Part shown: piece after piece, positions 21,244 through 61,268 of the stretch | How the letters are laid out: each line of letters begins with the position of its first letter | Numbering within the stretch: the first letter of the stretch is position 1 | Origin: a phage | Direction: 5' to 3' (one strand) | Assembly: GCA_012416205.1 (NCBI GenBank) | Contig: GCA_012416205.1_3033.2 | Length of the DNA stretch: 64,000 bases | The notes under the pieces: model-generated | Told to the model about the DNA's origin: nothing | What the model saw: the letters and a program-made list of their open reading frames with translations, nothing else | Database searches by the model: none | Made by a program: the position numbers and the translations under genes

Positions 21244-21246
21244 GAT

Positions 21247-28190: not shown

Positions 28191-28195
28191 TCAAC

Positions 28196-34944: not shown

Positions 34945-34952
34945 CATAAAGT

Positions 34953-35005
34953 CCTCATGTTATGTCAGTAAGACTACTATAACACAACATGAGGGACTTG
35001 TAAAC
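34953..35005 (-). promoter_or_regulatory. Early-promoter-like GTTTAC(18)TATAGT element embedded in a 9-bp inverted repeat that includes the RBS (copy 2, upstream of alc)
   Basis: 52 of 53 bp identical to 19134-19186; arms CCTCATGTT / AACATGAGG. Confidence 0.5.
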
Positions 35006-44448: not shown

Positions 44449-44679
44449 TTATTGTTCAATCAGTCCCATGTAAAATTCTGCGTCTTCAGAATCCATGCCA
44501 TCACAATATTCATTAGCCATAAAGCGGGTGAGGTCTTCAAGAGGACCTTCAATGACAATAGAAAAATTGCAATAATTGGGATCATCGTGAATACTTGTGA
44601 TACTAAGTTCAGGATAACGATTACGAATAATTTCTTCGATATATTCAAAATCAACGATGTCAATATCAACTTTAGCCAT
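44449..44679 (-). CDS. Hypothetical acidic protein
   Basis: 76 aa from MAKVDIDIV with a GAGGA RBS; the longer track ORF would overlap the promoter element. Confidence 0.45.
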
Positions 44680-44722
44680 ATTATTTTCCTCTTTAATCAT
44701 CAGCAGTATTGCCGATAGTTGT

Positions 44723-44804
44723 ATAGTACCATGGAAGGACAAGGATGTAAACCATTTTGTGAAAAAATTTTTGAAATAAAAAAAAGGGGACCCTAGAGGT
44801 CCCC
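44723..44804 (-). promoter_or_regulatory. Gene 32 terminator hairpin plus early-promoter-like GTTTAC(18)TACTAT element (cassette copy A)
   Basis: Hairpin GGGGACC-CTAGA-GGTCCCC, T-run, AT-rich tract, -35 GTTTAC and -10 TACTAT; flanks repeated at 61033-61113. Confidence 0.5.
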
Positions 44805-44826
44805 AATTAATTAGTAATATAATCTA

Positions 44827-45735
44827 TTAAAGGTCATTCAAAAGGTCATCCAGGTCCGTGTCATCAGCACTAGATGAACTGCCAGAGCTTGAGCTCATAA
44901 AATCATCTTCAGTTTTTGTATTGAAGTCATCAACATTGAATGCATCCAAATCATCAGCAACTTTATCAGCTTTCTTAGCAGCAGTTGCAGCAGCACCGCC
45001 CATCACAGCAGTTCCCATAACTTGACCGAATTTAGTGCTCAGTTCTTCAAACGATTTGAATTTATCTTTAGAAGTCATTTCAGAAAGGTCAACCATTTGT
45101 TCGAACAGTTCTTTCTGGAAAGATTCATCGTCAATGTTTGGAATCGCAGATTGATTCAGGAATTTAGATTCATCGTAATTACTAAATCCAGAAACCTGTT
45201 TAACTTTCAGTACAAAGTTAGCACCTTCCCACGGACAAGTTACATCAACCGGAGTTTCACCCATTTCAACATCAACCGCAATCATCGCGTTGATTTTATC
45301 CCAGATTTTCTTACCGAAACGATATTTAAATACTTTACCTTCATTTTCTGGAGCAGCTGGGTCTTTTACAACAAGAATATTAGCCCAATAAGAAGTTTTA
45401 CGTTTAACAAGACTGTACTCTTTATTGTCAGTGTTGTACAAATCATTTTTACTGATGTACTGACATACTGGGCAAGAATCGTAATCACCGTGGGTAGATG
45501 AACAGTTTTCAATATACCATTTACCATTTTTCTTGAAACCGTGATTTACAAGAATTGCGAATGGTGCTTGTTCATCATTTTTAGACGGAAGAAAACGAAT
45601 TACTGCTTGACCGTTACCCGCATTATCGAGTTTCAGTTTCCACTCGCCTTTATCTTCAGAAGAAAAACCACCTTTATTTCCAGCCAGTTTAGCCATTTGT
45701 GCAGCGAGTTCAGCAGTAGATTTACGTTTAAACAT
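44827..45735 (-). CDS. 32: Single-stranded DNA-binding protein gp32
   Basis: 302 aa; recognisable gp32 sequence including the acidic Ser-rich C-terminus and zinc-binding Cys/His cluster. Confidence 0.96.
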
Positions 45736-45834
45736 TTTTATTTCCTTTTTAATTTAATTAACAGTTGGTGCTATGACGATGTATGACCTCATAGCTGGTC
45801 AGTGAGATAATTATAATCTATTTATAATAAGCAA

Positions 45835-46488
45835 TTAATATTTGCAAGATTTCACAGTTTCAATAAAAACACTTTTAGCTTTCTGTGAATCAATATTTAA
45901 AATTTTTCTATAAGCCTTTAACTTTATAGAATAATTATTCCAGACTAAATTATCAGTCTGTTCATCATGTTTATCAATTATATTTAAAAATGAATCAAGC
46001 AAGATAAACGTCTCAAACGAAATTATATTCGATTGAAGTAGTTTAAAAATATAACTTGATTGAACTTTTGGATTATACTCAAAGATTTCTTTAAAAGCAG
46101 AAACTTCAACTTTTTTACTAAAATAATAGATATTCCTAATATCTTCTTCAAATTTAAATTTAACTTGCTTTAAGCGACCGATATATTCACGATAAAATAC
46201 TAATGCATCAGCGTCAGAGATATCACCAATCCAAGCATCTTGGTTAGCTACAAGATTGCTAATAAAAATTAAAGTCAATTCTTTTAATTTATACTTTTCT
46301 GATAGCTTTTGGAAAAAATACTTATCTCTTCGTTTTTGATAAGCGGCATCAGACACCCGCATGCACCAATTATACTTAATAACATCATACTTTCCATTCA
46401 TATGTTGTTTTATCATTAAGTATAATTTATAAACTGATTTACCATCAATGTATCTTTCACCACCAGCAGGCATGCGGAGTTTAATCAT
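45835..46488 (-). CDS. 59: Helicase loader gp59
   Basis: 217 aa (T4 gp59 length), adjacent to gene 32. Confidence 0.85.
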   Translation of the reverse strand: MIKLRMPAGGERYIDGKSVYKLYLMIKQHMNGKYDVIKYNWCMRVSDAAYQKRRDKYFFQKLSEKYKLKELTLIFISNLVANQDAWIGDISDADALVFYREYIGRLKQVKFKFEEDIRNIYYFSKKVEVSAFKEIFEYNPKVQSSYIFKLLQSNIISFETFILLDSFLNIIDKHDEQTDNLVWNNYSIKLKAYRKILNIDSQKAKSVFIETVKSCKY

Positions 46489-46823
46489 AGCAGAAAATCT
46501 AATGTATTAGTTTTTTCACAACGAACAACAGAAGGACGTAAAAGATTTTCGTCAATAGCTTCTGACTGAATTTTTTCAATTATACCCGAAGGAATAAATT
46601 TAGCAAATTGAGTTTCAGGAATAGAGTTTTCTTCTAAGAATGCTGTCGTAGCTTCAAGATAACTCATTCCAAACTCTTCTACCATTTTTTCAATAATAAA
46701 TCCATTTTCTTGACGATCAAGAAGCTTTGCTATTTCATCCTTTTCTTTCTTGATTGAAAGTTCTTTTTCTGAAAGACCGGTCTCATCGACCGGGCGAATA
46801 TCATTTAGAGAAAACTGTGTCAT
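46485..46823 (-). CDS. 33: Late transcription co-activator gp33
   Basis: 112 aa from MTQFSL; position between 59 and dsbA. Confidence 0.8.
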   Translation of the reverse strand: MTQFSLNDIRPVDETGLSEKELSIKKEKDEIAKLLDRQENGFIIEKMVEEFGMSYLEATTAFLEENSIPETQFAKFIPSGIIEKIQSEAIDENLLRPSVVRCEKTNTLDFLL

Positions 46824-47070
46824 AAAGTTCAACTACCTCTTCGGTTTCAGCTTCAAACACATCACGGTTATCTTTATGATATAGAGCCAAAAGACGATTA
46901 AACATCTTGCCATCAACACCAAGTTCATCTTTGGCACGAATTCGAATATCTTTAATCAATTCATTATAACCGGAAATTTTCAGTTTATGATCAGATGCTT
47001 CTTTAATAAATTTAGCCAAGTCTTCGCCATGGATAGCTTCATCAAATTCAACCATTTCTTTTTTAGCCAT
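46801..47070 (-). CDS. dsbA: Double-stranded DNA-binding protein DsbA
   Basis: 89 aa (T4 DsbA length), between rnh and 33. Confidence 0.8.
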   Translation of the reverse strand: MAKKEMVEFDEAIHGEDLAKFIKEASDHKLKISGYNELIKDIRIRAKDELGVDGKMFNRLLALYHKDNRDVFEAETEEVVELYDTVFSK

Positions 47071-47078
47071 TATTCACC

Positions 47079-47996
47079 TCAAAATTCATTAATGCTATTA
47101 GTTAATTTAGAAAGACCCGCTTTTACAAAATATGAATAAATTTTGCCACGCGGTGGTAATTTATATGAATTATAGTAATTCACAATGTTTGAAGCAATAT
47201 TATCAGGAATATAATCAAAATCAATTAGAACTAAATTTTCTTTATAACGATTATATTCAGATTCTGTGAGAAGCACCTTAGCTTGCTCACGGTCATTAGC
47301 AATAGCTTCAACGATTGAAGTTTTCATTGAAGGAGTTCGTTCACCTTCAACTTTGGTAAACCAAAAGTCAGATCGTACTTTAACTGAAGCAACGTTATCC
47401 TTTTTATCGCCTTTAAGGATTTTAGTCATACAGTCAATTTCAGCAGAACCGCTTTTAATTTTAACCCATTTCTTGTGCATCGGTGACCATTGCTTAACAT
47501 TTGGATATTTGTGAAGTTGAGTAAAGTCACCATCAGATGAAATGATTAAAATCTTGTGTCCTTCTAAAGAGAACTTTTTAACAAGAACAGCAATGTGGTC
47601 ATCTGCTTCATACTTATCAATATCCATAACAATGTATGGCATATAAGCTTTCAATTCATCTATAACTTTATGGCTGGATTCAAAATAACCTTCCCAGTCC
47701 CAAGTAGATTCTTCTCGTGCTTTTCCACGGTTTTTCTTGTAATAGTAAGCAAAATCACGACGCCAGTATCCAGATTTCGCGTTATCAATACACAGTACAA
47801 TTTTAGTGTATCCAAGCGTTTTTGCTTTTTTGACATTAAACTTAATTGAGTTCAATATCAAATGACGAACCATTGATAAATTAATTTTTTCTTTATCTGG
47901 GAAGTTTACTAAAGCAGTTGAAAGCGCAATTTGACTAAAGTCAATAAAGCAAATTCCTTCTTTGTAATCTTCATCCAACATCATTTCTAAATCCAT
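47079..47996 (-). CDS. rnh: RNase H (5'-3' exonuclease, FEN family)
   Basis: 305 aa from MDLEMMLDEDYKEG; recognisable T4 RNase H sequence. Confidence 0.92.
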   Translation of the reverse strand: MDLEMMLDEDYKEGICFIDFSQIALSTALVNFPDKEKINLSMVRHLILNSIKFNVKKAKTLGYTKIVLCIDNAKSGYWRRDFAYYYKKNRGKAREESTWDWEGYFESSHKVIDELKAYMPYIVMDIDKYEADDHIAVLVKKFSLEGHKILIISSDGDFTQLHKYPNVKQWSPMHKKWVKIKSGSAEIDCMTKILKGDKKDNVASVKVRSDFWFTKVEGERTPSMKTSIVEAIANDREQAKVLLTESEYNRYKENLVLIDFDYIPDNIASNIVNYYNSYKLPPRGKIYSYFVKAGLSKLTNSINEF

Positions 47997-48058
47997 ATGA
48001 ACCTCGTTCAATTAGTGAGATTTCTATTATATACCATCCAAATCTTAAAGTAAACAAG

Positions 48059-48066
48059 TATAAATA
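48059..48066 (+). promoter_or_regulatory. Late promoter box TATAAATA upstream of gene 34
   Basis: Exact TATAAATA 34 bp upstream of the gene 34 ATG. Confidence 0.65.
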
Positions 48067-48100
48067 CTTATTATTGAAAACACAATAGGAGCCCGGGAGA

Positions 48101-51100
48101 ATGGCCGAGATTAAAAGAAAGTTCAGAGCAGAAGATGGTCTGGACGCAGGTGGTGATAAAATAATCAACGTAGCTTTAGCTGATCGTGCCGTAGGAACTG
48201 ACGGTGTTAACGTTGATTACTTAATTCAAGAAAACACAGTTCAACAATACGATCCAACTCGTGGATATTTAAAAGATTTTGTAATCATTTATGATAACCG
48301 CTTTTGGGCTGCTATAAATGATATTCCAAAACCGGCAGGAGCTTTTAATAGCGGACGCTGGAGAGCATTACGTACCGATGCTAACTGGATTACGGTTTCA
48401 TCTGGTTCATATCAATTAAAATCTGGTGAAGCTATTTCGGTTAACACCGCAGCTGGTAATGATATTACATTTACTTTACCATCTACCCCAATTGATGGTG
48501 ATACTATCGTTCTCCAAGATATTGGAGGAAAACCTGGAGTTAACCAAGTTTTAATTGTAGCTCCGGTGCAAAGTATTGTAAACTTCAGAGGTCAACAAGT
48601 ACGTTCAGTACTAATGACTCATCCAAAGTCACAGCTAGTTTTAATTTTTAGTAATCGTCTGTGGCAAATGTATGTTGCTGATTATAGTAGAGAAGCTGTA
48701 ATTGTAACACCAGCGAATACTTATCAAGCGCAATCCAACGATTTTATCGTGCGTAGATTTACTTCTGCCGCACCGATAAATATTAAACTTCCAAGATTTG
48801 CTAATCATGGAGATATTATTAATTTCGTCGATTTAGATAAACTAAATCCACTTTATCATACAATTGTTACTACATACGATGAAACGACTTCAGTACAAGA
48901 AGTTGGAACTCATTCCATTGAAGGCCGTACATCGATTGACGGTTTCTTGATGTTTGATGATAATGAGAAATTGTGGAGATTGTTTGACGGGGATAGTAAA
49001 GCGCGTTTACGCATTATAACGACTAATTCTAATATTCGTCCAAACGAAGAAGTTATGGTATTTGGTGCGAATAACGGAACAACCCAAACAATTGAGCTTC
49101 AGCTTCCAACTAATATTTCTGTTGGTGATACTGTTAAAATTTCCATGAATTACATGAGAAAAGGACAAACAGTTAAAATCAAAGCTGCCGGTGAAGATAA
49201 AATTGCTTCTTCAGTTCAATTGCTGCAATTCCCAAAACGTTCAGAATATCCGCCTGAAGCTGAATGGGTTACAGTCCAAGAATTAGTTTTTAACGGTGAA
49301 ACTAATTATGTTCCAGTTTTACAACTTGCTTATATTGAAGATTCTGATGGAAAATATTGGGTTGTACAGCAAAACGTTCCAACTGTCGAAAGAGTAGATT
49401 CTTTAAATGATTCTACTAGAGCAAGATTAGGCGTAATTGCTTTAGCTACACAAGCTCAAGCTAACGTCGATTTAGAAAATTCTCCACAAAAAGAATTAGC
49501 AATTACTCCAGAAACATTAGCTAACCGTACTGCTACAGAAACTCGTAGAGGTATCGCAAGAATAGCAACTACTGCTCAAGTGAATCAGAACACCACATTC
49601 TCTTTTGCTGATGATATTATCATCACTCCTAAAAAGCTGAATGAAAGAACTGCTACAGAAACTCGCAGAGGTGTTGCAGAAATTGCTACTCAGCAAGAAA
49701 CAAACGCAGGAACAGATGATACAACCATCATTACTCCTAAAAAGCTTCAAGCTCGTCAAGGTTCTGAATCATTATCTGGTATTGTAACTTTTGTATCTAC
49801 TGCAGGTGCTACTCCAGCTTCTAGCCGTGAATTAAATGGTACGAATGTTTATAATAAAAACACTAATAATTTAGTTGTTTCGCCAAAAGCTTTGGATCAG
49901 TATAAAGCTACTCCAACACAGCAAGGTGCAGTAATTTTAGCAGTTGAAAGTGAAGTAATTGCTGGTCAAAGTCAGGAAGGATGGACAAATGCTGTTGTAA
50001 CGCCAGAAACGTTACATAAAAAGACATCAACTGATGGAAGAATTGGTTTAATTGAAATTGCTACGCAAAGTGAAGTTAATACAGGAACTGATTATACTCG
50101 TGCAGTCACTCCTAAAACTTTAAATGACCGTAGAGCAACTGAAAGTTTAAGTGGTATAGCTGAAATTGCTACACAAGTTGAATTCGACGCAGGCGTCGAC
50201 GATACTCGTATCTCTACACCATTAAAAATTAAAACCAGATTTAATAGTACTGATCGTACTTCTGTTGTTGCTCTATCTGGATTAGTTGAATCAGGAACTC
50301 TCTGGGACCATTATACCCTTAATATTCTTGAAGCAAATGAGACGCAACGTGGTACACTTCGTGTAGCTACACAAGTTGAAGCTGCTGCAGGAACATTAGA
50401 TAATGTTTTAATAACTCCTAAAAAGCTTTTAGGTACTAAATCTACCGAATCGCAAGAAGGTGTTATTAAAGTTGCAACTCAGTCTGAAACTGTGACTGGA
50501 ACGTCAGCGAACACTGCTGTATCTCCAAAAAATTTAAAATGGATTGTGCAGAGTGAACCTACTTGGGCAGCTACTACTGCAATAAGAGGTTTTGTTAAAA
50601 CTTCATCTGGTTCAATTACATTCGTTGGTAATGATACAGTCGGTTCTACCCAAGATTTAGAACTGTATGAGAAAAATAGCTATGCGGTATCACCATATGA
50701 ATTAAACCGTGTATTAGCAAATTATTTGCCATTAAAAGCAAAAGCTGCTGATACAAATTTATTGGATGGTCTAGATTCATCTCAGTTCATTCGTAGGGAT
50801 ATCGCACAGACGGTTAATGGTTCACTAACCTTAACCCAACAAACGAATCTGAGTGCCCCTCTTGTATCATCTAGTACTGCTACGTTTGGTGGATCAGTTT
50901 CGGCAAATAGTACATTAACTATTTCTAATACTGGAACGGCAACTCGTCTGATTTTTGAGAAAGGACCTCAAACTGGAACTAACCCAGCACAGACGATGAC
51001 TATCAGAGTTTGGGGAAATCAGTTTGGTGGCGGATCAGATACAACGCGTTCTACTGTATTTGAAGTTGGTGATGAAACATCTAATCACTTTTATTCTCAA

Positions 51101-51970
51101 CGTAATAAAGATGGGAATATAACGTTTAGCATTAATGGTACTGTGATGCCAATAAATGTTAACGCTTCAGGCACGTTAAATGCGAATGGCGTTGCAACAT
51201 TCGGTCGTTCAGTTACAGCCAACGGTGAATTCATTAGCAAGTCTGCAAATGCTTTCAGAGCAATTAGTGGTGATTACGGATTCTTTATTCGCAATGATGC
51301 TGCTAATACCTATTTTATGCTCACTGCATCCGGTGATCAGACTGGCGGATTTAATGGATTACGTCCTTTGTCTATTAATAATGCATCTGGCCAAGTAACG
51401 ATTGGTGAAAGCTTAATCATTGCCAAAGGTGCTACTATAAATTCTGATGGTTTAACTGTTAACTCGAGAATTCGTTCTCAAGGTACTAAAACATCTGACT
51501 TATATACCCGTGCGCCAACATCTGATACTGTAGGATTCTGGTCAATTGATATTAACGATTCAGCCACTTATAACCAGTTCCCGGGTTATTTTAAAATGGT
51601 TGAAAAAACTAATGAAGTGACTGGACTTCCGTACTTAGAACGTGGCGAAGAAGTTAAATCTCCTGGTACACTGACACAGTTTGGTAACACACTTGATTCG
51701 CTTTACCAAGATTGGATTACTTATCCAACGACACCAGAAGCACGTACCACTCGCTGGACCCGTACATGGCAGAAAACCAAAAACTCTTGGTCGAGTTTTG
51801 TTCAGGTATTTGATGGAGGTAACCCTCCTCAGCCGTCTGATATCGGTGCTTTACCATCTGATAATGCTACAATGGGGAATCTTACTATTCGTGATTTCTT
51901 ACGAATTGGTAATGTTCGCATTATTCCTGACCCAGTGAATAAAACTGTTAAATTTGAATGGGTTGAATAA
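48101..51970 (+). CDS. 34: Long tail fibre proximal subunit gp34
   Basis: 1289 aa (T4 gp34 length); repeated TPKKL/ETRRG motifs. Confidence 0.93.
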   Translation: MAEIKRKFRAEDGLDAGGDKIINVALADRAVGTDGVNVDYLIQENTVQQYDPTRGYLKDFVIIYDNRFWAAINDIPKPAGAFNSGRWRALRTDANWITVSSGSYQLKSGEAISVNTAAGNDITFTLPSTPIDGDTIVLQDIGGKPGVNQVLIVAPVQSIVNFRGQQVRSVLMTHPKSQLVLIFSNRLWQMYVADYSREAVIVTPANTYQAQSNDFIVRRFTSAAPINIKLPRFANHGDIINFVDLDKLNPLYHTIVTTYDETTSVQEVGTHSIEGRTSIDGFLMFDDNEKLWRLFDGDSKARLRIITTNSNIRPNEEVMVFGANNGTTQTIELQLPTNISVGDTVKISMNYMRKGQTVKIKAAGEDKIASSVQLLQFPKRSEYPPEAEWVTVQELVFNGETNYVPVLQLAYIEDSDGKYWVVQQNVPTVERVDSLNDSTRARLGVIALATQAQANVDLENSPQKELAITPETLANRTATETRRGIARIATTAQVNQNTTFSFADDIIITPKKLNERTATETRRGVAEIATQQETNAGTDDTTIITPKKLQARQGSESLSGIVTFVSTAGATPASSRELNGTNVYNKNTNNLVVSPKALDQYKATPTQQGAVILAVESEVIAGQSQEGWTNAVVTPETLHKKTSTDGRIGLIEIATQSEVNTGTDYTRAVTPKTLNDRRATESLSGIAEIATQVEFDAGVDDTRISTPLKIKTRFNSTDRTSVVALSGLVESGTLWDHYTLNILEANETQRGTLRVATQVEAAAGTLDNVLITPKKLLGTKSTESQEGVIKVATQSETVTGTSANTAVSPKNLKWIVQSEPTWAATTAIRGFVKTSSGSITFVGNDTVGSTQDLELYEKNSYAVSPYELNRVLANYLPLKAKAADTNLLDGLDSSQFIRRDIAQTVNGSLTLTQQTNLSAPLVSSSTATFGGSVSANSTLTISNTGTATRLIFEKGPQTGTNPAQTMTIRVWGNQFGGGSDTTRSTVFEVGDETSNHFYSQRNKDGNITFSINGTVMPINVNASGTLNANGVATFGRSVTANGEFISKSANAFRAISGDYGFFIRNDAANTYFMLTASGDQTGGFNGLRPLSINNASGQVTIGESLIIAKGATINSDGLTVNSRIRSQGTKTSDLYTRAPTSDTVGFWSIDINDSATYNQFPGYFKMVEKTNEVTGLPYLERGEEVKSPGTLTQFGNTLDSLYQDWITYPTTPEARTTRWTRTWQKTKNSWSSFVQVFDGGNPPQPSDIGALPSDNATMGNLTIRDFLRIGNVRIIPDPVNKTVKFEWVE

Positions 51971-51978
51971 GAGGTATT

Positions 51979-53094
51979 ATGGAAAAATTTATGGCAGAGT
52001 TTGGACAAGGATATGTCCAAACGCCATTTTTATCGGAAAGCAATTCAGTAAGATATAAAATAAGCATAGCGGGTTCTTGCCCGCTTTCTACAGCAGGACC
52101 ATACGTTAAATTTCAGGATAATCCTGTAGGAAGTCAAACATTTAGCGCAGGCCTTCATTTAAGAGTTTTTGACCCTTCCACCGGAGCATTAGTTGATAGT
52201 AAGTCATATGCTTTTTCTACTTCAAATGATACTACATCTGCTGCCTTTGTTAGTTTCATGAATTCTTTTTCAAGCAATAGACTTGTTGCTATATTAACTA
52301 ACGGAAAGGTTAATTTTCCTCCTGAAGTAGTATCTTGGTTAAGAACAGCAGGAACGTCTGCTTTTCCATCTGACTCTGTATTGTCAAGATTCGACGTATC
52401 ATATGCTGCTTTTTATACTTCTTCTAAAAGAGCTATTGCATTAGAGCATGTTAAACTGAGTAATAGAAAAAGCACAGATGATTATCAAACTATTTTAGAT
52501 GTTGTATTTGACAGTTTAGAAGACGTCGGAGCTACCGGGTTTCCAAGAAGAACGTATGAAAGCGTTGAGCAATTTATGTCAGCGGTTGGTGGAACTAATA
52601 ACGAAATTGCCCGTCTACCTACAGCATCTGCAATAAGTAAACTTTCTGACTATAATTTAATTCCTGGAGATGTTCTTTATCTTAAAGCACAACTATATGC
52701 TGACGCTGATTTATTAGCGTTGGGAACTACTAATATTTCAATTCGTTTTTATAATGCGTCGAATGGATATATTTCCTCGACACAAGCTGAGTTTACTGGA
52801 CAGGCTGGGTCTTGGGAATTAAAGGAAGACTATGTAGTTGTTCCAGAAAATGCAGTTGGATTTACGATATATGCACAGAGAACTGCTCAAGCGGGACAAG
52901 GCGGTATGCGAAATTTAAGCTTTTCTGAAGTATCAAGAAATGGCGGAATTTCAAAACCTGCTGAATTTGGCGTCAATGGTATTCGTGTTAATTATATTTG
53001 TGAATCTGCTTCACCTCCGGATATAATGGTACTTCCTACGCAAGCATCGTCTAAAACTGGTAAAGTGTTTGGGCAAGAATTTAGAGAAGTATAA
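51979..53094 (+). CDS. 35: Long tail fibre hinge protein gp35
   Basis: 371 aa, follows gp34. Confidence 0.88.
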   Translation: MEKFMAEFGQGYVQTPFLSESNSVRYKISIAGSCPLSTAGPYVKFQDNPVGSQTFSAGLHLRVFDPSTGALVDSKSYAFSTSNDTTSAAFVSFMNSFSSNRLVAILTNGKVNFPPEVVSWLRTAGTSAFPSDSVLSRFDVSYAAFYTSSKRAIALEHVKLSNRKSTDDYQTILDVVFDSLEDVGATGFPRRTYESVEQFMSAVGGTNNEIARLPTASAISKLSDYNLIPGDVLYLKAQLYADADLLALGTTNISIRFYNASNGYISSTQAEFTGQAGSWELKEDYVVVPENAVGFTIYAQRTAQAGQGGMRNLSFSEVSRNGGISKPAEFGVNGIRVNYICESASPPDIMVLPTQASSKTGKVFGQEFREV

Positions 53095-53099
53095 ATTGA

Positions 53100-53117
53100 G
53101 GGAGCCTTCGGGTTCCC
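53100..53117 (+). terminator. Hairpin GGGAGCC-TTCG-GGTTCCC after gene 35
   Basis: 7-bp stem (one G-U pair) with TTCG loop followed by a T-run. Confidence 0.5.
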
Positions 53118-53125
53118 TTTTTCTT

Positions 53126-53133
53126 TATAAATA
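53126..53133 (+). promoter_or_regulatory. Late promoter box TATAAATA upstream of gene 36
   Basis: Exact TATAAATA 23 bp upstream of the gene 36 ATG. Confidence 0.6.
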
Positions 53134-53156
53134 CTATTAAAATAAAGGGGCATACA

Positions 53157-53819
53157 ATGGCTGATTTAAAAGTAGGTTCAACAACCGGAGGCTCTGTCAT
53201 TTGGCATCAAGGAAATTTTCCATTGAATCCAGCCGGTGACGATGTACTCTATAAATCATTTAAAATATATTCAGAATATAATAAACCGCAGGCAGCTGAT
53301 AACGATTTCGTTTCTAAAGCTAATGGTGGTACTTACGCCGCGACTGTTCGATTTAATGGAGGAGTACATGTTCCTACTATAGGTAGTAGTCAACAGTGCG
53401 GTGTTTATCCAGGTAACGGTGATGCAGCTACCTTTGCTATGGCAAATATTGATATTGTTTCGTGGAATGGTATTGGTTTTAAATCATCACAAGGTTCAGC
53501 AGACCGAACTGTTGTAATTAATGCACGTAATGGTGATATTAGTACAAAAGGCGTTATGACAGCAGTAGGTCAAATAAGAAGTAATGCAGTTGCTCCTATA
53601 GCAGCGAATGACCTTACTAGAAAGGACTATGTTGATGGAGCAATAAATACTGTTACAGCAAATGCGAACTCTAGGGTGCTACGATCTGGTGACACCATGA
53701 CAGGTAATTTAACCGCGCCAAACTTTTTCTCGCAGAATCCTGCATCTCAACCTTCACATGTTCCACGATTTGACCAAATCGTAATTAAGGATTCTGTTCA
53801 AGATTTCGGCTATTATTAA
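53157..53819 (+). CDS. 36: Long tail fibre distal connector gp36
   Basis: 220 aa, T4 gp36 length and position. Confidence 0.88.
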
Positions 53820-53827
53820 GAGGACTT

Positions 53828-56800
53828 ATGGCTACTTTAAAACAAATACAATTTAAAAGAAGCAAAACTGCAGGTCAACGTCCTGCTGCTTCAGTATTAG
53901 CCGAAGGTGAATTGGCTATAAACTTAAAAGACCGTACTCTTTTTACTAAAGATGACTCGGGAAATATTATTGATTTAAGCATTACCGCTGGCGGTAATAT
54001 TAGTGGAAATATCACTCAAACTGGCGATTATACACAGACTGGAAAATTTAATTTAATTGGTCCGCAAATTGTAGCAAGCGGTGGATATATTGAGTTTAAT
54101 TATCGTACTACTGGAAGTGGGGCTTGGTCTGGTCAACACACTGCAAAAGCTCCAATTTTTGTAGATTTAAGCTCAGCTACTTCCACATCTGAATATAATC
54201 CTATAATTAAACAGCGCTTTAAAGATGGAACTTTTTCATTAGGTACTTTAGTTTCTGAAGGTTCGTTGAAGATTCATTATATCAATGAATCTGGCGATTC
54301 GAAATATTGGACGTTTCGACGTGACGGCGGATTTGTTGTTGACGGTGGAGGTTTAGCAGTATCAGGAGGTAGTATAACTACATCTGGAAATATTGCAGCT
54401 CTCGGAAATATTACTTCGCCTCAGATTAATACTAAAAATATTATTTTAGATACAAAAGCATTTGGACAATACGATTCGCAATCATTAGTTCAATATGTTT
54501 ATCCTGGAACAGGTGAAGAAAATGGTATAAACTATCTTCGTAAAGTTCGAGCTAAATCAGGCGGAAGCATTTACCATGAAATCGCTTCAGCTCAAACCGG
54601 TAAAAATGATGAAATTTCTTGGTGGACCGGAAATACACTTACTACTAAATTAATGGGTCTTCGTAATGATGGCGCAATGGTATTACGTCGTTCACTTGCT
54701 ATTGGCACAATTACCACTGACGAAAATACTAACAACTATGGTTCTCCTACTCCAATGGGAGAAAGATATATTGCTTTGGGCGATGCTGCCACTGGTTTAA
54801 AATACATTAAGCAGGGTGTTTATGATTTAGTAGGTAATTGGAATTCTGTTGCTTCTATTACTCCTGATAGTTTCCGTAGTACTCGTAAAGCGTTATTTGG
54901 ACGTTCAGAAGACCAAGGCGGAACCTGGACAATGCCTGGAACGAACGCTGCCTTTTTATCAGTTCAAACACAGGCTGATGAAAACACTGCTGGAGACGGC
55001 CAGACGCATATTGGCTATAACTCAGGCGGAAAAATGAACCACTATTTCCGTGGTAAAGGCAAAACTAATATTAATACTCAGGAAGGTATGGAAGTTAATC
55101 CGGGTATTTTGAAATTGGTAACTGGCTCTAATAACGTACAGTTTTATGCCGACGGAACAGTATCTTCAATACAAAGAATTAAATTTGATAACGGATTAGT
55201 TCTTACTGGTGCTAGACCCGACGGTATTCAACTTGACGCTCCTACAGCAACAGATGGCACTAAAACTATATTGTGGGCCGGCGGTACTCGCCCAGGTCAG
55301 AATAAAAGTTATCTATCTATCAAAGCATGGGGTAATGCCTTTAATGCATCTGGCGATCGTGCTCGTGAAACAGTTTTTGAAGTATCAGATGGACAAGGTT
55401 ACCATTTTTATTCTCAACGAGTTGCTCCCGGATCAGGTTCTACCGTCGGACCTATTCAATTTCGAGTTAATGGTGGTTTATTAACTTCTGGTGGTATTAC
55501 ATCATCTGGTTCTATTGTTACTGAATCAAGTTTAGTTGCAAATAATGGATTATCTGTAAATGGTCAGGCTAAATTCGGTGGAACGGCAGATGCATTAAGA
55601 ATTTGGAATGCCGAATACGGTGCTATTTTCCGTCGCTCAGAAACAGCATTGCATATTATCCCGACTCCTAAAGATGCCGGTGAAAGTGGTGGAATAAGTA
55701 ATCTCCGCCCGTTAAGTATTAGTCTTAATAATGGTATGGTACAAATGCGCCATTCTGTTACGTTAGGCGATGATGGCGCTGGCGGTAATATGATTACTGT
55801 GGACAACGATACCAAACTTGTTGTTGTTACTAGTAATAGTCGTATTTCTCCTAATTTCAGAATGCAATTAGGACAAAATTCTTATATAGATATCGAGGCT
55901 TCTGATGGCGTTCGCCCAGCAGGGTGTGGTTCATTTGCATCCCAGAATGACGTAAACGTCAGAGCTCCAATTTATATGAATATAGAGCGTACTGCTGCTT
56001 CTGAATATATCCCTATTATCAAACAACGTTACGTACAAGGTGATAGTACTTATTCTATTGGTACCTTAATTTCTCAAGGAGACTTCCGTGTCCATTATCA
56101 CCAGGGTACTAGTACTACCGGAACTGATTTAAGCTGGGAATTCCGTCGAAATGGTGATTTCCGCGCGACAGGTAAAATTATTGCCGGTGCTGCTACTTTT
56201 GGCACTGATGGCAATATTACGGGTGGTTCAGGAAACTTTGCTAACTTAAACAGTACAATTGAATCACTTAAAACTGATATTGTTTCAAGTTATCCTATTG
56301 GAGCTCCAATTCCATGGCCAACGGATACTCCTCCTGACGGTTACGCTATTATGGAAGGTCAGACTTTTGATAAGTCTGCATATCCAAAGCTAGCTGTTGC
56401 ATATCCTAGCGGTGTTATTCCAGATATGCGCGGGCAGACTATCAAGGGTAAACCAAGCGGTCGTGATGTTTTGAGCGCAGAAGCAGACGGTGTTAAGGCT
56501 CATAACCATAGTGCATCGGCTTCAAGTACTGACTTAGGCACTAAAACCACGTCAAGTTTTGATTATGGTACTAAGACAACAAGTAGCTTCGACTATGGTA
56601 CTAAGACCAGCAATACCACTGGTGACCATGCTCATAATAGAGGTAACATGGAAATTTCTGGTGTGTTTGGTTGGTTCAGAAGTGATAGTAGTGCATTCTA
56701 CACTGCTAGTGGTGCATTCGTGATGGGTAGTAGTCAGGGTTCACATGGTTTCACAGGTTCTAACTTCACTAATGGTGCTCCTGTTGATTTTCGCGCGTCA

Positions 56801-57007
56801 AGAACTTGGACAGGTGTAACCAACACGACAGGTAAGCATGCTCATACCGTAGGTATTGGTGCTCACACACATACCGTAGGTATTGGTGCTCACACGCACT
56901 CAGTAGCAATTGGTTCGCACGGTCATACTATCACTGTAAATAGTACAGGTAATACAGAAAACACAGTTAAAAACATTGCTTTTAACTACATCGTTCGTTT
57001 AGCATAA
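53828..57007 (+). CDS. 37: Long tail fibre distal subunit gp37 (receptor-binding tip)
   Basis: 1059 aa; C-terminal [10 protein letters not shown] repeats and HxH boxes ([31 protein letters not shown]) as in the T4 gp37 needle domain. Confidence 0.93.
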
Positions 57008-57012
57008 GGAGA

Positions 57013-57026
57013 GGGGCTTCGGCCCC
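57013..57026 (+). terminator. Hairpin GGGGC-TTCG-GCCCC after gene 37
   Basis: Perfect 5-bp GC stem with TTCG loop followed by a T-run. Confidence 0.55.
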
Positions 57027-57034
57027 TTCTAAAT

Positions 57035-57586
57035 ATGAAAATATATCATTATTATTTTGACACTAAAGAATTTTACAAAGAAGAAAATTACAAACCGGTT
57101 AAAGGACTCGGTCTTCCTGCTCATTCAACAATTAAAAAACCTTTAGAACCTAAAGAAGGATACGCAGTTGTATTTGATGAACGTACTCAAGATTGGATTT
57201 ATGAAGAAGACCATCGCGGCAAACGAGCATGGACTTTTAATAAAGAAGAAATTTTTATAAGTGACATTGGAAGCCCGGTTGGTATAACCTTTGATGAGCC
57301 CGGCGAATTTGATATATGGACTGATGACGGTTGGAAAGAAGACGAAACATATAAACGCGTTTTAATTCGCAATAGAAAAATTGAAGAATTATACAAAGAA
57401 TTTCAAGTTTTAAATAATATGATTGAAGCTTCTGTCGCGAATAAAAAGGAAAAATTCTATTATAAAAACCTTAAGCGATTCTTTGCTCTTTTAGAAAAGC
57501 ATGAGCATTTAGGTGGTGAATTTCCCGCATGGCCTGAAAAAGAACGGAAACCTTGGTATAAGCGTTTATTCAAGCATTACGTATAA
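57035..57586 (+). CDS. 38: Tail fibre assembly chaperone gp38 (T4 type)
   Basis: 183 aa; recognisable T4 gp38 sequence starting MKIYHYYFDTKEFYKEENYKPVKGLGLPAH. Confidence 0.93.
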   Translation: MKIYHYYFDTKEFYKEENYKPVKGLGLPAHSTIKKPLEPKEGYAVVFDERTQDWIYEEDHRGKRAWTFNKEEIFISDIGSPVGITFDEPGEFDIWTDDGWKEDETYKRVLIRNRKIEELYKEFQVLNNMIEASVANKKEKFYYKNLKRFFALLEKHEHLGGEFPAWPEKERKPWYKRLFKHYV

Positions 57587-57589
57587 ATA
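57582..57589 (+). promoter_or_regulatory. Late promoter box TATAAATA upstream of t
   Basis: TATAAATA overlapping the gene 38 stop, 17 bp upstream of the t ATG. Confidence 0.6.
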
Positions 57590-57606
57590 TCTTAAAAGGA
57601 GGGTCT

Positions 57607-58263
57607 ATGGCAGCACCTAGAATATCATTTTCGCCCTCTGATATTCTGTTTGGTGTTCTAGATCGCTTGTTCAAAGATAACGCTACCGGGAAAGTTCTTG
57701 CTTCCCGGGTAGCTGTCGTAATTCTTTTATTTATGATGGCGATTGTTTGGTATAGGGGAGATAGTTTCTTTGAGTACTATAAGCAATCAAAGTATGAAAC
57801 ATACAGTGAAATTATTGAAAAGGAAAGAAATGCACGCTTTGAATCTGTCGCCCTGGAACAACTCCAGATAGTTCATATATCATCTGAGGCAGACTTTAGT
57901 GCGGTGTATTCTTTCCGCCCTAAAAACTTAAACTATTTTGTTGATATTATAGCATACGAAGGAAGATTACCTTCAACAATAACTGAAAAATCACTTGGAG
58001 GATATCCTGTTGATAAAACTATGGATGAATATACAGTTCATTTAAATGGACGTCATTATTATTCCAACTCAAAATTTGCTTTTTTACCAACTAAAAAGCC
58101 TACTCCCGAAATAAACTACATGTACAGTTGTCCATATTTTAATTTGGATAATATCTATGCTGGAACGATAACCATGTACTGGTATAGAAATGATCATATA
58201 AGTAATGACCGCCTTGAATCAATATGTGCTCAGGCGGCCAGAATATTAGGAAGGGCTAAATAA
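57607..58263 (+). CDS. t: Holin T
   Basis: 218 aa (T4 holin length); single N-terminal TM segment and large periplasmic domain; follows gene 38. Confidence 0.9.
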   Translation: MAAPRISFSPSDILFGVLDRLFKDNATGKVLASRVAVVILLFMMAIVWYRGDSFFEYYKQSKYETYSEIIEKERNARFESVALEQLQIVHISSEADFSAVYSFRPKNLNYFVDIIAYEGRLPSTITEKSLGGYPVDKTMDEYTVHLNGRHYYSNSKFAFLPTKKPTPEINYMYSCPYFNLDNIYAGTITMYWYRNDHISNDRLESICAQAARILGRAK

Positions 58264-58536
58264 TTATTTGTTCGTATACATCTCTAGATATCGATATACA
58301 CCCTCAAAACCCTCGTTGAATTCGTCGATGAGGGTTTTCTTATCTTCTTGAGTTAATTCAGAAACAATTTTACGGAATGAATTCTGATTTAATTTTCTAC
58401 CTTCATGCGTTACTCCAATCTCATTCAGAAATGCAATAAAATTAGCACGATTTTCAACAATATCTTCTCTGGAAAATTTAATCAAAATAGACGCAACAGT
58501 AATAATTTCACGAACTGTATCAATGTTTTTATTCAT
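58264..58536 (-). CDS. asiA: Anti-sigma-70 factor AsiA
   Basis: 90 aa; recognisable AsiA sequence MNKNIDTVREIITVASILIKFSRED. Confidence 0.95.
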   Translation of the reverse strand: MNKNIDTVREIITVASILIKFSREDIVENRANFIAFLNEIGVTHEGRKLNQNSFRKIVSELTQEDKKTLIDEFNEGFEGVYRYLEMYTNK

Positions 58537-58548
58537 TAACTATACCAC

Positions 58549-58701
58549 TCAATTAGTTGACTTTGTTATAATATCATCAGACGCTTGATTTGTAAACTGG
58601 TCTGTGTTATTTTCTTCAAAAATTTTTTCTACGAATTCTTTGAACGACTCACGTTCCTGAGCTACATTATGCTCGATTACCTTTTCAAGATTATGACTCA
58701 T
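58549..58701 (-). CDS. 50-aa acidic small ORF between arn and asiA (not in the supplied track)
   Basis: Own translation MSHNLEKVIEHNVAQERESFKEFVEKIFEENNTDQFTNQASDDIITKSTN; ATGA overlap with the arn stop; contains GTTTAC(18)TATTAT early-promoter-like element for asiA (58568-58597). Confidence 0.35.
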   Translation of the reverse strand: MSHNLEKVIEHNVAQERESFKEFVEKIFEENNTDQFTNQASDDIITKSTN

Positions 58702-58976
58702 TCGAAATAATCTTCAATTTCGTAATCATGGACATAAATCATTATAGTTTTTAATACATCATCAATACTTTTTCCTGGAGCTGGAATTACATAAAAATAT
58801 CCTGCTTTTGAGAGGTCTTTATAAGTTCCAACCAAGAAATCGTTATTCTCAAGATGTAGTTCTTCAACTAATTCATTGACAATTGAGTGGTATAAATTTG
58901 GTAGAAACTTATATAGCTTTTCTAGAATATCAATTTTGATTGTATATTGAACCACGGATTGAGAATCAATAATCAT
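58698..58976 (-). CDS. arn: Anti-restriction nuclease Arn
   Basis: 92 aa (T4 Arn length), highly acidic, adjacent to asiA. Confidence 0.85.
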   Translation of the reverse strand: MIIDSQSVVQYTIKIDILEKLYKFLPNLYHSIVNELVEELHLENNDFLVGTYKDLSKAGYFYVIPAPGKSIDDVLKTIMIYVHDYEIEDYFE

Positions 58977-59059
58977 AGACCTTCCCCTTATGTTTCTGTT
59001 TGCGATTAGATTCTTTAAACGCTTTCTTCTTATCCTTATGAACAGAAGCTTTATTAAAA

Positions 59060-59278
59060 TTATGTTTTGCGACTAAATTGTTCATAGTGCTGAATTACCT
59101 CTCTTAAACATTTGCATGTGAATGAAAACTTTTTAGCTACACCACATTCAAATATATGTTCTCTTAAATCACGTGTATCGGTATATCCCATCTCAACAAT
59201 AAAATGCCGTATTAAATTTTTATCTTTATCATTGAGAGAATTAAAATAGTCAGATTTTGAATTAATTTCCCTGGCCAA
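59060..59278 (-). CDS. Hypothetical protein (arn/motA intergenic cluster)
   Basis: 72 aa ORF. Confidence 0.45.
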   Translation of the reverse strand: MAREINSKSDYFNSLNDKDKNLIRHFIVEMGYTDTRDLREHIFECGVAKKFSFTCKCLREVIQHYEQFSRKT

Positions 59279-59558
59279 ATTGAATCACCTTCAGTTGACG
59301 TTTTAATTCTTTTATCATTTCTTCGTTCATCGCAATATAAAGATCGCGTAAAGCAGGTTTTAGCATTCCATTTATTGGAGAACTAAATGGACATACATAA
59401 TCTTTTCCTACAAGCTTTTTGGTGAATTCCATATCACAGAACTTAAATCCCGGCTCATTGGTATAAATTCCCCAATTAGTTGACATCATTTTATTAGCAT
59501 ATTCCAGCGCCTGGATTTGATTCATAATTCCATCAATTTGAAACTTTTTAATATTCAT
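59262..59558 (-). CDS. Hypothetical protein (arn/motA intergenic cluster)
   Basis: 98 aa ORF. Confidence 0.45.
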   Translation of the reverse strand: MNIKKFQIDGIMNQIQALEYANKMMSTNWGIYTNEPGFKFCDMEFTKKLVGKDYVCPFSSPINGMLKPALRDLYIAMNEEMIKELKRQLKVIQFGQGN

Positions 59559-60019
59559 TAGTAAAGGTCCTCAGAGTAAAGTTCTTTTTCACTACCACCG
59601 CGTTCAATACGTACTTGTCCGGCGTAAGTTGCAATAATCATTGCTTCTTCACGTGTCCAATAATTACTATATTGGTCAATAAACCCTTGGTCATCATCAC
59701 AAACTTGCTGAGTAACTAATTGAGGTTTAACTACATCTAAAACTTCTGCCATATCTTTAGAATAATGACGAGCACCTGGAATAATAAGAGTTCGTCCATC
59801 TTTTAATTTAAAACGGTTGGCTGCGCAAACAATTCGTCGTTGATATTTTTGATTTTCGTCCCAATATGCAGACTGCCAACAGATTTCAGGAACTTCTTTC
59901 AGAATATCTTCTTCTGTGCATTTATAACCATGCGCTTTAAATTTTTCAACAAGACTTTCTGGAGTCTCACGAAATAAAGGAACATTCAACATTTTTAAAC
60001 GATTAATAAATGGGTTCAT
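59558..60019 (-). CDS. Hypothetical protein (arn/motA intergenic cluster)
   Basis: 153 aa ORF. Confidence 0.5.
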
Positions 60020-60345
60020 TTAAACCATCCTTTAATACGCTGCCACAAAGTTTTCTGTTGAGCTTTGTTAACACCAATTGAGCGAATAACTGGTTGAGAT
60101 TCCTGGAATTCTTTATAATCAGCAAGGTAAATTTCATAAGCCGCTTGAACAAAAGTACTGATCGCTGCCATAAAGTTCTTGCGAATTCCCATAGAGGCTT
60201 CAGAACCGCCACGGATGATTAAATATTTACCAGTCTTAATCTTTACGATACTTCCAAGATAAGCTCCATGGTACCAGATATCCCAACCCTCTTGAGTAGG
60301 TTCTGCACAACGACGAAGTTCATTGATAATTTCTAACTTGTTCAT
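60016..60345 (-). CDS. Hypothetical protein (arn/motA intergenic cluster)
   Basis: 109 aa ORF. Confidence 0.5.
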
Positions 60346-60355
60346 TATTTATTCC

Positions 60356-60991
60356 TCACAGTTCAGATGCTACAGCGATTACAGCTTCAATGTTTTCTGC
60401 TGAACGTTTAATGTCAAGATACACATTACCGTTTTTAGCGATTTTACATGACATTCCGATATCAGTAAATTTCTGAATATGATGTTCCATCATTTTGTAT
60501 CCAAAAATTCGCATATTTCCATTATTGTTAATTTCAAAATTACGAATTCCGTGAGTGCGTTTTTCTAAAATAGCGAGATAGTTACTGCGATAAGTTTCAA
60601 CCTTTTTAAGAACAAATCCATTTTCATCTAAAAGTTTTAACATGAAGTCTTTATCTTCTTCCATATCAGAAGTAATCTCACGAGCTTTACGAGTTGCTCG
60701 TTTTTTCAGCAGTTCCGGAGCATTTTCCTGCGCGTATAAAGTTGCTGCGTTTGAAATAATATCCTGAGCTTCACCTGTAATGATTAATCCATCACCAGAT
60801 TTCTCCACCAGGCCTTTTTTAATCAATACCCCAATATTACTATTAACTACTGCGTTACCTAAATCTGGATGCACCTCACGAACTTCTGCAGCTGTAATGA
60901 AATCTTTCTTAGCAATGGTAATTAAAATCGCAGCAGTTTTTTCATTCAGAACATCGTTAGAAGCTTTGATGATGTAAGTTACTTTAGACAT
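60356..60991 (-). CDS. motA: Middle transcription activator MotA
   Basis: 211 aa (T4 MotA length); located beside gene 52. Confidence 0.92.
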   Translation of the reverse strand: MSKVTYIIKASNDVLNEKTAAILITIAKKDFITAAEVREVHPDLGNAVVNSNIGVLIKKGLVEKSGDGLIITGEAQDIISNAATLYAQENAPELLKKRATRKAREITSDMEEDKDFMLKLLDENGFVLKKVETYRSNYLAILEKRTHGIRNFEINNNGNMRIFGYKMMEHHIQKFTDIGMSCKIAKNGNVYLDIKRSAENIEAVIAVASEL

Positions 60992-61032
60992 TTTCTAATC
61001 TCCGTAATTCTATATCAGTAGTTGATAGTTGT

Positions 61033-61113
61033 ATAGTACCACAGTATGCTTTGGTTGTAAACCGTTTTGTGAAAAAATTTTTGAAATAAAAAAGGGAGAG
61101 CCTCAGCTCTCCC
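61033..61113 (-). promoter_or_regulatory. Terminator hairpin plus early-promoter-like GTTTAC(18)TACTAT element upstream of motA (cassette copy B)
   Basis: Hairpin GGGAGAGC-CTCA-GCTCTCCC, T-run, AT-rich tract, GTTTAC and TACTAT; flanks near-identical to copy A at 44723-44804. Confidence 0.5.
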
Positions 61114-61118
61114 TAAAA

Positions 61119-61268
61119 TTACTGCATGACTGTGATAACTGTCATGATAACACGTTGAATTCCGAACGCAAGAAGACCTCCTGCTACGGCTGGAACAACA
61201 CCTAAACCCGCCAGTAAAATGCCACCGGATACTAATGCAGCGCTTGTAATACCAATTAATGGACTCAT
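61119..61268 (-). CDS. 49-aa hydrophobic glycine-rich membrane peptide (not in the supplied track)
   Basis: Own translation MSPLIGITSAALVSGGILLAGLGVVPAVAGGLLAFGIQRVIMTVITVMQ; ATGA overlap with the gene 52 stop. Confidence 0.4.
   Translation of the reverse strand: MSPLIGITSAALVSGGILLAGLGVVPAVAGGLLAFGIQRVIMTVITVMQ

Follow-up and report, generated by a model that had tools for sequence, protein, structure and literature searches.

The window analysed here, a 64,000-nucleotide stretch of phage DNA (NCBI GenBank assembly GCA_012416205.1, contig GCA_012416205.1_3033.2), carries two similar composite regulatory elements on its minus (coding) strand, one downstream of gene 32 (copy A, 44714-44806) and one upstream of motA (copy B, 61024-61116). 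Judged by its similarity to known genomes, the window is part of the genome of a Tequatrovirus, a relative of phage T4, and spans approximately T4 coordinates 102-166 kb. We are highly confident that A and B are known T4 transcription-unit boundaries, in each of which a Rho-independent terminator is joined to a strong early promoter, and that the copies exchange segments. Such composites have been published as the promoter-early stem-loop (PeSL) cassettes of T4-like phages (Arbiol et al. 2010, PMC2839356; Comeau et al. 2014, PMC4122927). The A/B composite is the published PeSL; the finding is already known, and the earlier reading of this DNA, hereafter the original prediction, is supported but not new. 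The anatomy of the cassettes, their folding, the covariation of the hairpins, the multi-copy status, the mosaic segments and the insertions and deletions associated with the cassettes were all observed directly.

Organization of the cassettes at gene 32 and motA

Both elements lie between the stop codon of one gene and the Shine-Dalgarno sequence and ATG of the next, A between gene 32 and frd.3, and B between motA.1 and motA. On the coding strand, copy A consists of GGGGACC-tctag-GGTCCCC, T8, ATTTCAAAAATTTTTTCACAAAATG, GTTTAC, 18 nt, TACTAT and ACAACTATC, and is the gene 32 terminator followed by the frd.3 early promoter. The stop codon of gene 32 is located 22 nt upstream of the hairpin (44786-44804), which was identified by folding, by a terminator scan and by covariation among orthologues, and the terminator ends in a run of eight T residues (44778-44785). 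The AT-rich tract ATTTCAAAAATTTTTTCACAAAATG (44753-44777), which resembles an UP element and matches its consensus, leads into the −35 region GTTTACA (44746-44752), in which the sigma-70 hexamer TTTACA occupies 44746-44751. The full 18-nt spacer is atccttgtccttccatgg, with a variable core at 44732-44745. The remainder of the promoter (44714-44731), seen in the sequence and by a promoter scan, holds the extended −10 motif TGG, the −10 hexamer TACTAT (44723-44728), ACAACT, and ATC at +1 to +3. Locus A is orthologous to T4 site 146875, and the GenBank record of the Yersinia phage fPS-65 independently carries the labels 'terminator' and 'predicted early promoter' exactly at the gene 32/frd.3 site.

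Copy B is arranged in the same order, as GGGAGAGC-tgag-GCTCTCCC, T6, ATTTCAAAAATTTTTTCACAAAACG, GTTTAC, 18 nt, TACTAT and ACAACTATC, and is the motA.1 terminator followed by the motA early promoter. Its hairpin, (A)GGGAGAGC-tgag-GCTCTCCC(T) at 61093-61114, stands 4-5 nt downstream of the motA.1 stop codon and was likewise recovered by folding and by the terminator scan, together with the T6 run at 61088-61093. The UP-like tract ATTTCAAAAATTTTTTCACAAAACG occupies 61063-61087, and the promoter core, with GTTTACA, the spacer aaccaaagcatactgtgg, TACTAT (61033-61038) and ACAACTATC, occupies 61024-61062. Locus B is orthologous to T4 site 163673.

The original prediction had claimed the same architecture and an identical flank for the two loci, and both statements hold on the minus strand. 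A and B form a direct-repeat family (D6) of 93 nt with 77% ungapped identity, 16,310 bp apart, and match exactly over three stretches, of 29, 18 and 8 nt. The sequence GATAGTTGTATAGTACCA is identical at 44714 and 61024. The identical 18-mer, TGGTACTATACAACTATC on the coding strand, covers positions −15 to +3, from the TGn extended −10 motif through the −10 hexamer and the discriminator to the bases transcribed first. The predicted 18-bp spacer stands when counted from GTTTAC; with TTTACA as the −35 hexamer, it becomes the canonical 17 bp.

Both promoters show the features of T4 early promoters, namely TTTACA at −35, a 17-nt spacer and the extended −10 sequence TGG-TACTAT. In the T4 annotation 'Pe133295', GTTTAC starts at 133331, which places the start site 36 nt downstream of the G. 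Since this offset agrees with the T4 early consensus, in which GTTTAC occupies −36 to −31 (PMC1524935), the rule was applied to A, B and a more diverged copy C described below, and transcription is predicted to start at the A residues at 44716, 61026 and 28106, respectively. T4 early promoters have been described as UP/−35/TGn/−10 promoters with additional consensus regions, and the response to ADP-ribosylated alpha subunit in T4 is unlike that of host promoters (PMC2988021). A and B resemble the class of T4 early promoters (Pe) in GTTTAC, TGn, TAnnAT, the UP element, the extended start consensus and the early strand; they show no difference in kind and make up an especially homogeneous subfamily. 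Their assignment to the canonical T4 early promoter family in the original prediction is thus borne out by the published consensus, by orthology with T4 146875 and 163673, and by the fPS-65 annotation. Named early promoters of T4 include those of motA and cd.2; lists of the class were reportedly compiled by Liebig and Rueger in 1989, Wilkens and Rueger in 1996, and Miller et al. in 2003.

The conserved AT-rich tract, at about −37 to −61, is by its match to the consensus a near-consensus UP element, which the original prediction had not recognised. The sequence AAAAATTTTTTCACAAAA, at about −39 to −56 in both copies, is A/T-rich as expected of an UP element, and the tract core AAAAATTTTTT fits the distal subsite AAAWWTWTTTT and is followed by an A-tract. 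This consensus is said to be that of Estrem et al. from 1998. In E. coli UP elements such as that of rrnB P1, at about −38 to −60, AAAAATTTTTT would correspond to the distal subsite and the A-tract to the proximal subsite, with the register of A and B about 1 nt off. The UP function would explain part of the conservation of the AT tract without recombination. In phage YUEEL01 (about 17440-17515), the UP element of gene 32/frd.3 is changed to ATTTCATTTTTTTTTTTTTCACAAAACG, with a long T-run in place of the A-tract; the change apparently arose by slippage or by local inversion of the AT tract.

For T4 and PST, the PeSL consensus reads TTTACW-N17-TAYWAT, closely preceded by an AT-rich region and a stem-loop (PMC4122927); TTTACA-N17-TACTAT in A and B matches it exactly. 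Like PeSLs, A and B combine a stem-loop, an AT-rich region, a sigma-70-type early promoter and a Shine-Dalgarno sequence with ATG. They are multi-copy, and are associated with insertions, deletions or replacements, namely an open reading frame (ORF) at locus B, the spacers at locus A and the loss of a hairpin in one relative (L029). Promoter and terminator activities of PeSLs were shown by lacZ reporters in phi1/RB49 (PMC2839356). PeSLs are multi-copy, conserved over about 100 bp, and have been proposed to shuffle genes by serving as linkers in homologous recombination (PMC2839356, PMC4122927). A and B differ from them in flanking core and regulatory genes (32 and motA) rather than ORFan-rich hyperplastic regions, and small genes of unknown function (frd.1-3, motA.1 and arn.x) adjoin them; exceptions located outside such regions have been allowed for (PMC2839356). 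The exchange at locus A is also different, as it replaces the promoter spacer with copies from cassettes 20-91 kb away in T4 coordinates and does not insert or delete an ORF. The three-allele conversion at a core-gene locus, together with the inversions of terminator loops described below, may go slightly beyond the PeSL papers.

In the mechanism that we propose, the terminator would end the upstream unit, that is, the gene 32 mRNA at A and the gene 52-motA.1 mRNA at B, and within 30 nt the strong T4 early promoter would restart transcription. The promoter would be read right after infection by unmodified or Alt-modified E. coli sigma-70 RNA polymerase, whose alpha C-terminal domains are expected on the UP element (AAAAATTTTTT-CA-CAAAA), with sigma region 4 on GTTTACA, region 3 on TG and region 2 on TACTAT. 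Transcription would begin at the A seven nt downstream, at 44716 for frd.3 and the genes downstream of it and at 61026 for motA. The hairpin sequences would differ because pairing alone matters, and the promoter halves would owe their likeness to purifying selection on numerous polymerase contacts and to recurrent ectopic homologous recombination or gene conversion among about five dispersed copies per genome. The analysis serves mainly to confirm and to annotate: it locates the gene 32 terminator and the frd.3 and motA early promoters, and predicts where transcripts start and stop.

Folding and covariation of the terminator hairpins

As the original prediction stated, the hairpins of A and B are perfectly paired with different stems, and both fold as expected, A at −16.5 kcal/mol (z = −3.2) and B at −18.3 kcal/mol (z = −4.0). 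They are the top two terminator-like hits in a consensus scan over 43-62 kb, and carry the signature of intrinsic terminators, with stems of 8-9 bp, loops of 3-4 nt and 6-8 U residues. Hairpin A is the well-known transcription terminator of T4 gene 32. The T4 terminator has the same GGGGACC/GGTCCCC stem and the same position after gene 32, and differs in its loop (CTAGA, versus the reverse complement TCTAG here) and in its U-run (6, versus 8 here). Transcription termination by the T4 gene 32 terminator is known; it was reportedly described by Krisch and Allet in 1982, and is said to have been used in the Omega interposon by Prentki and Krisch in 1984.

The difference between the stems of A and B had been taken as a sign that structure rather than sequence is selected. 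This comparison is weak evidence, because A and B need not be homologous, and much stronger support for the claim came from the orthologues of gene 32. An exact UP/−35 pattern scan of IMG/VR yielded 10 loci, a number too small to analyse populations, and loci were fetched via gp32 and MotA. The gene 32 terminator set comprised 28 loci, namely 26 that encode gp32 relatives (57-99% amino acid identity), T4 and the window. A perfect GC hairpin with a T-run was found just past the gene 32 stop codon in 27 of the 28 loci, with six different core stems. When the 13 distinct sequences were aligned by MAFFT, the 4-nt loops being padded with an N (an unpaired column that leaves the pair counts unaffected), 97.1% of the cells were paired, and changes had occurred on both sides in 7 of 8 pairs. 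The covariation score was 0.651 compared with 0.199 for shuffled alignments, a value that none of the 500 shuffles reached. Shifting the partner by a single column lowered the pairing to about 63%. A GTTTAC-type promoter follows in all 27 hairpin-bearing loci, which argues that the layout of a terminator followed by an early promoter 3' of gene 32 is an ancient architecture. Conservation of the terminator 3' of gene 32 in 5 of 6 genomes has been reported (PMC1524935). At locus B, the relatives of the hairpin include only loop variants and one shorter stem (GGGAGC/GCTCCC).

A natural variant (L029, IMGVR_UViG_2974787500_000001) lacks the gene 32 terminator hairpin; its gene 32 has an altered C-terminus (...DDTDLFQKIFS*) and ends within the UP element of the frd.3 promoter. 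This variant indicates that the hairpin is dispensable. Of all T4 messages, that of gene 32 is the most stable, and RNase E processes it close to the stop codon (PMC3014915). Both observations would fit hairpins that serve mainly as stabilisers of mRNA 3' ends or as processing barriers, rather than as efficient terminators, with the adjacent promoters being incidental. We regard this explanation as unlikely. The 6-8 U residues after both hairpins are the signature of intrinsic termination, a hairpin-plus-promoter arrangement is present at six T4 loci and 3' of gene 32 in all genera sampled, and in reporter assays the termination achieved by PeSL stem-loops was close to that of rrnB T1 (PMC2839356). 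The two roles are moreover compatible and do not exclude each other.

Both terminator loops (window positions 44793-44797 and 61102-61105) occur in reverse-complementary orientations among close relatives whose stems are identical. The gene 32 loop is CTAGA in T4, ime09, HY01 and YUEEL01, and TCTAG in the window, fPS-65, PYps55T and RB27. The motA.1 loop is CGAG in T4 and ime09, and CTCG in RB27, YUEEL01 and PYps55T. The pattern looks like recurrent inversion of the palindrome or loop, for example by template switching.

Exchange of segments among paralogous cassettes

The similarity between A and B extends to a family of copies throughout the genomes of T4 and its relatives. The early-gene strand of T4 contains 37 GTTTAC-N18-TAnn[AG]T sites and the other strand none; phage teqhal, outside the region of the window, contains 27 such sites, likewise confined to the early-gene strand. 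A perfect hairpin with a T-run lies directly upstream of six T4 sites (15288, 55384, 58780, 130310, 146875 and 163673), of which 130310 is the equivalent of C, 146875 of A and 163673 of B. Over 70 non-core positions, the 666 pairs of T4 promoters have a median identity of 0.36 and a 95th percentile of 0.57, and the sites 27080, 53943, 55384, 70696, 146875, 163673, 166807 and 167086 stand out as a subfamily at 0.63-0.84. A and B are members of this subfamily, which comprises about eight early promoters and is specific to Tequatrovirus. Four T4 cassettes have an identical 20-nt 5' untranslated region (5'UTR). A 62-nt query from copy A matched 2,659 places in 542 phage records, about five per genome, with 3-7 copies per genome among the records listed. 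The similarity noted in the original prediction is therefore not confined to two loci. Identity between A and B is 0.69-0.74 within Tequatrovirus, compared with 0.28-0.36 between the gene 32 promoters of other genera and that of Tequatrovirus, which indicates that the similarity of A and B is lineage-specific.

Comparison of orthologous cassettes revealed at least three spacer alleles at locus A, each matching a different paralogous cassette, on a background of a locus-specific hairpin (GGGGACC) and a locus-specific leader from +4 (ggcaatactgc). The window allele, atccttgtccttccatgg, is identical at 18 of 18 positions to the spacer of a cassette in the tRNA region (teqhal 138920), which has no hairpin and continues with the 5'UTR aactactgata. 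The allele of T4 and ime09, aagcataaagctttatgg, is identical at 18 of 18 positions to that of the nrdC.10/.11 cassette (T4 55384, teqhal 154690), which has the hairpin AGGGAGCC and the 5'UTR aactgatacgg. The HY01 allele, ataccacaaggactatgg, agrees at 16 of 18 positions with the denB cassette (T4 167086), which has no hairpin and the 5'UTR aactactgata; the two also have CACAAAACA in common preceding GTTTAC. Among 532 records, allele frequencies are bimodal, the T4 type being a minority (59 records at ≥95% identity versus 422 at 80-90%). These alleles indicate a footprint of homology-driven ectopic gene conversion, the end points of which would lie in the UP tract and in the −15 to +3 tract. On the evidence of these alignments, exchange between A and other family members is demonstrated. 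The recombinational spread of a cassette suggested by the original prediction is supported by this mosaic sharing among paralogues and by the ORF insertions and deletions at locus B, and had already been put forward for PeSLs.

Locus B presents a different picture. In all seven genomes compared, the hairpin is GGGAGAGC, the spacer is aaccaaagcatact[g/a]tgg and the 5'UTR is aactactgata, except in YUEEL01 and PYps55T, where it is aataaatgaac. The spacer is identical in six of these seven Tequatrovirus genomes and differs by one base in ime09. Many relatives are about 340 bp longer at this locus. In Sf21 (L012, 998-1225), an ORF of 75 amino acids stands under cassette B, and a second early promoter, which serves motA, comes after it; the same 23-nt repeat, CTATCAAATAAATGAACTGAAAC, lies downstream of each promoter. 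YUEEL01 and PYps55T are arranged as Sf21 is. The extra ORF, with an early promoter on either side, is present between motA.1 and motA in many Tequatroviruses, and absent from the window and T4. Formation of the window motA leader by a single deletion between promoters of the Sf21 type was considered and rejected, as the 5'UTRs differ. This difference indicates that the locus-B haplotypes are separated by more than one simple event. A C/T single-nucleotide polymorphism (ATTT[C/T]AAAAA) is T at both A and B in T4, and C at both in the window and one IMG/VR genome. Co-variation of the two loci at this site was rejected, as HY01 and RB27 are discordant.

Several points weigh against the reading of A and B as terminator-promoter cassettes that exchange segments. 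The discordance of HY01 and RB27 means that direct exchange between A and B is not demonstrated. Locus B is nearly invariant, so that its similarity to the family could be old. The promoter and terminator activities and the polymerase contacts of A and B are drawn from the literature, from orthology and from consensus matches. A generic sigma-70 scan showed no enrichment (66 hits versus 68.5 expected), so that only the T4-specific pattern is informative.

Whether the cassettes might instead be the ends or targets of a dedicated site-specific system, with mini-circles or a hairpin-binding recombinase, has to be weighed in the light of the same observations. PeSL mini-circles were physically detected in phi1/RB49, where a hairpin-binding factor was also speculated upon (PMC2839356). 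The locus-B ORF lies between two promoters that are each followed by CTATCAAATAAATGAACTGAAAC, and both loop orientations are seen at the hairpins of A and of B. However, such a recombinase is neither known nor found, and the exchange boundaries at locus A fall inside common homology (the UP tract and −15 to +3) without co-transfer of the hairpin. A single excision between the Sf21 promoters also fails to give the window arrangement, and T4 recombination requires less than 50 bp of homology, according to work cited in PMC2839356. An actively mobile element is therefore improbable in our judgement.

Pure convergence on optimal contacts with E. coli RNA polymerase, without recombination or common descent, fares worse, and we give it very little credence. 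It would account for the location of the common tracts in known contact regions, while the hairpin, the spacer core and the 5'UTR, which have fewer contacts, vary; it is also in keeping with the near-invariance of locus B and with the extended consensus regions noted for T4 early promoters in reviews (PMC2988021). Yet the identity reaches positions that the UP consensus leaves free, four T4 cassettes have the identical 20-nt 5'UTR, and orthologous promoters of other genera reach only some 30% identity although they are read by the same host polymerase. The matches of the locus-A spacers to three different paralogous cassettes, at 18/18, 18/18 and 16/18 positions, largely refute it.

Chance resemblance of AT-rich intergenic DNA, which might be suspected from the AT-rich genome and the low complexity of the tract, is already refuted by conservation of the copies over 542 genomes, by exact repeats of 29 and 18 nt against a longest exact direct repeat of 16.3 nt on average and 19 nt at most in 100 Markov-1 simulated 64-kb sequences, and by eight GTTTAC-N18-TANNAT sites in the window, all on the minus strand, where 0.31 were expected and none of 100 shuffles reached eight.

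Returning to exchange among the cassettes, it is about an even bet that dispersed early-promoter cassettes of Tequatrovirus undergo frequent long-range gene conversion even beside core genes, with tracts running from the UP element to +3, donors 20-91 kb away in T4 coordinates, and terminator loops that flip independently. This reading would go past the published view of PeSLs, in which ORFs are shuffled between adjacent cassettes of plastic regions. If so, the strength and regulation of early promoters would be a rapidly reassorting trait in natural populations of T4-like phages. The data lend natural-population support to the published idea that terminator-promoter cassettes are portable recombination linkers, and the gene 32 spacer alleles are well suited to quantifying ectopic gene conversion among regulatory elements. 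For phage engineering, scattered repeats of about 60-90 bp call for caution as recombination substrates.

Further early promoters and neighbouring features of the window

The diverged third copy proposed by the original prediction was found at 28113-28191. This copy C (28106-28191 with its predicted start, minus strand) has the layout of A and B with greater divergence, consisting of the hairpin AGGACTCC-ttcg-GGAGTCCT (28172-28191), a T-run, and GTTTAC (28137-28142)-N18-TAGTAT (28113-28118). Its hairpin folds at −16.4 kcal/mol (z −4.6), and the T4 orthologue of copy C is the cassette located at 130310, between genes 30.9 and 30.8.

Three further sites had been listed with the spacing GTTTAC(18)TAnnAT. 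The one upstream of asiA (58568-58597, TATTAT, no adjacent hairpin) fits, with support from the T4 comparison, and those at 19157-19186 and 34976-35005 depart from it, as they have GTTTAC-N18-TATAGT. Four minus-strand sites returned by the pattern search had been overlooked: the frd.2/frd.1 promoter (43730-43759, T4 comparison), the orthologue of T4 'Pe133295' between cd.3 and cd.2 (31651-31680, T4 annotation), a promoter upstream of rnh (48026-48055), and a candidate GTTTAC-N18-TACAAT match, antisense within gene 34 (48554-48583).

The two TATAGT sites make up a repeat pair (D8; 19133-19186 and 34952-35005, minus strand) of 54 nt with 98% identity, which holds the longest exact repeat of the window, 38 nt. 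The first is an early-promoter-like sequence upstream of alt.-3 and the orthologue of T4 123093; the second lies at rnlA/alc and is the orthologue of T4 136336. The pair stands upstream of the alt.-3 and alc orthologues, each member within a long hairpin that flanks the −10 hexamer on both sides (−23 and −24.8 kcal/mol, z −4.1 and −5.5), and the T4 counterparts are similarly alike (0.71). Perfect inverted repeats of at least 6 bp, with one arm in the spacer and the other just 3' of the −10 hexamer, are present in 14 of the 37 T4 early promoters (control mean 3.2, maximum 9), and repeats of at least 7 bp in 8 of 37 (control mean 0.5, maximum 3). Examples are T4 20612, 57990, 73939, 66498 and 130310, and copy C of the window (28106-28142). 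In several T4 cases the 3' arm takes in the Shine-Dalgarno sequence, which read-through transcripts could mask at such promoters. The repeat of the frd.2/frd.1 promoter is kept with differing sequence in T4 and the window (AGGGTA/TACCCT versus GGCTAT/ATAGCC).

The minus strand of the window carries prereplicative genes, according to the ORF list and the T4 annotation, from which the following minus-strand genes were also identified. Gene 32 (44827-45735), with a 99.9% DNA match to that of teqhal, encodes the single-stranded DNA-binding protein of 302 amino acids, and frd.3 (44449-44679) is the first gene under promoter A. The motA.1 gene (61119-61268), for a predicted membrane or periplasmic protein of 49 amino acids, follows the topoisomerase gene 52 and closes its transcription unit; motA (60356-60991), the activator of middle transcription, is under promoter B. 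Over a 2-kb stretch near 45 kb, the window shows 99.9% identity with Escherichia phages teqhal and FriedrichZschokke; this stretch matches 879 phage records, of which almost all are T4-like. Teqhal is 99.9-100% identical to the window around gene 32, but has a different UP tract and loop at locus B.

An Rfam scan of the whole 64-kb window returned no family at the gathering score; no group I introns were matched in the td/nrdB region, where T4 has them, nor was the gene 32 leader pseudoknot. Compared with T4, segG is apparently absent between genes 32 and 59, where the gap is only about 100 bp. Two tandem full-length alt-like ORFs (685 and 698 amino acids; 19186-23343, minus strand) show 72-80% DNA identity with a period of 2,094 bp; T4 has a single alt gene with the remnants alt.-1 and alt.-2, annotated as an old partial duplication. 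A further hairpin, GGGACCGAAAGGTCCC, is present twice, at 4387-4433 and 18812-18858, 14.4 kb apart (repeat family D16), and these copies are probably additional terminators at late-gene boundaries.

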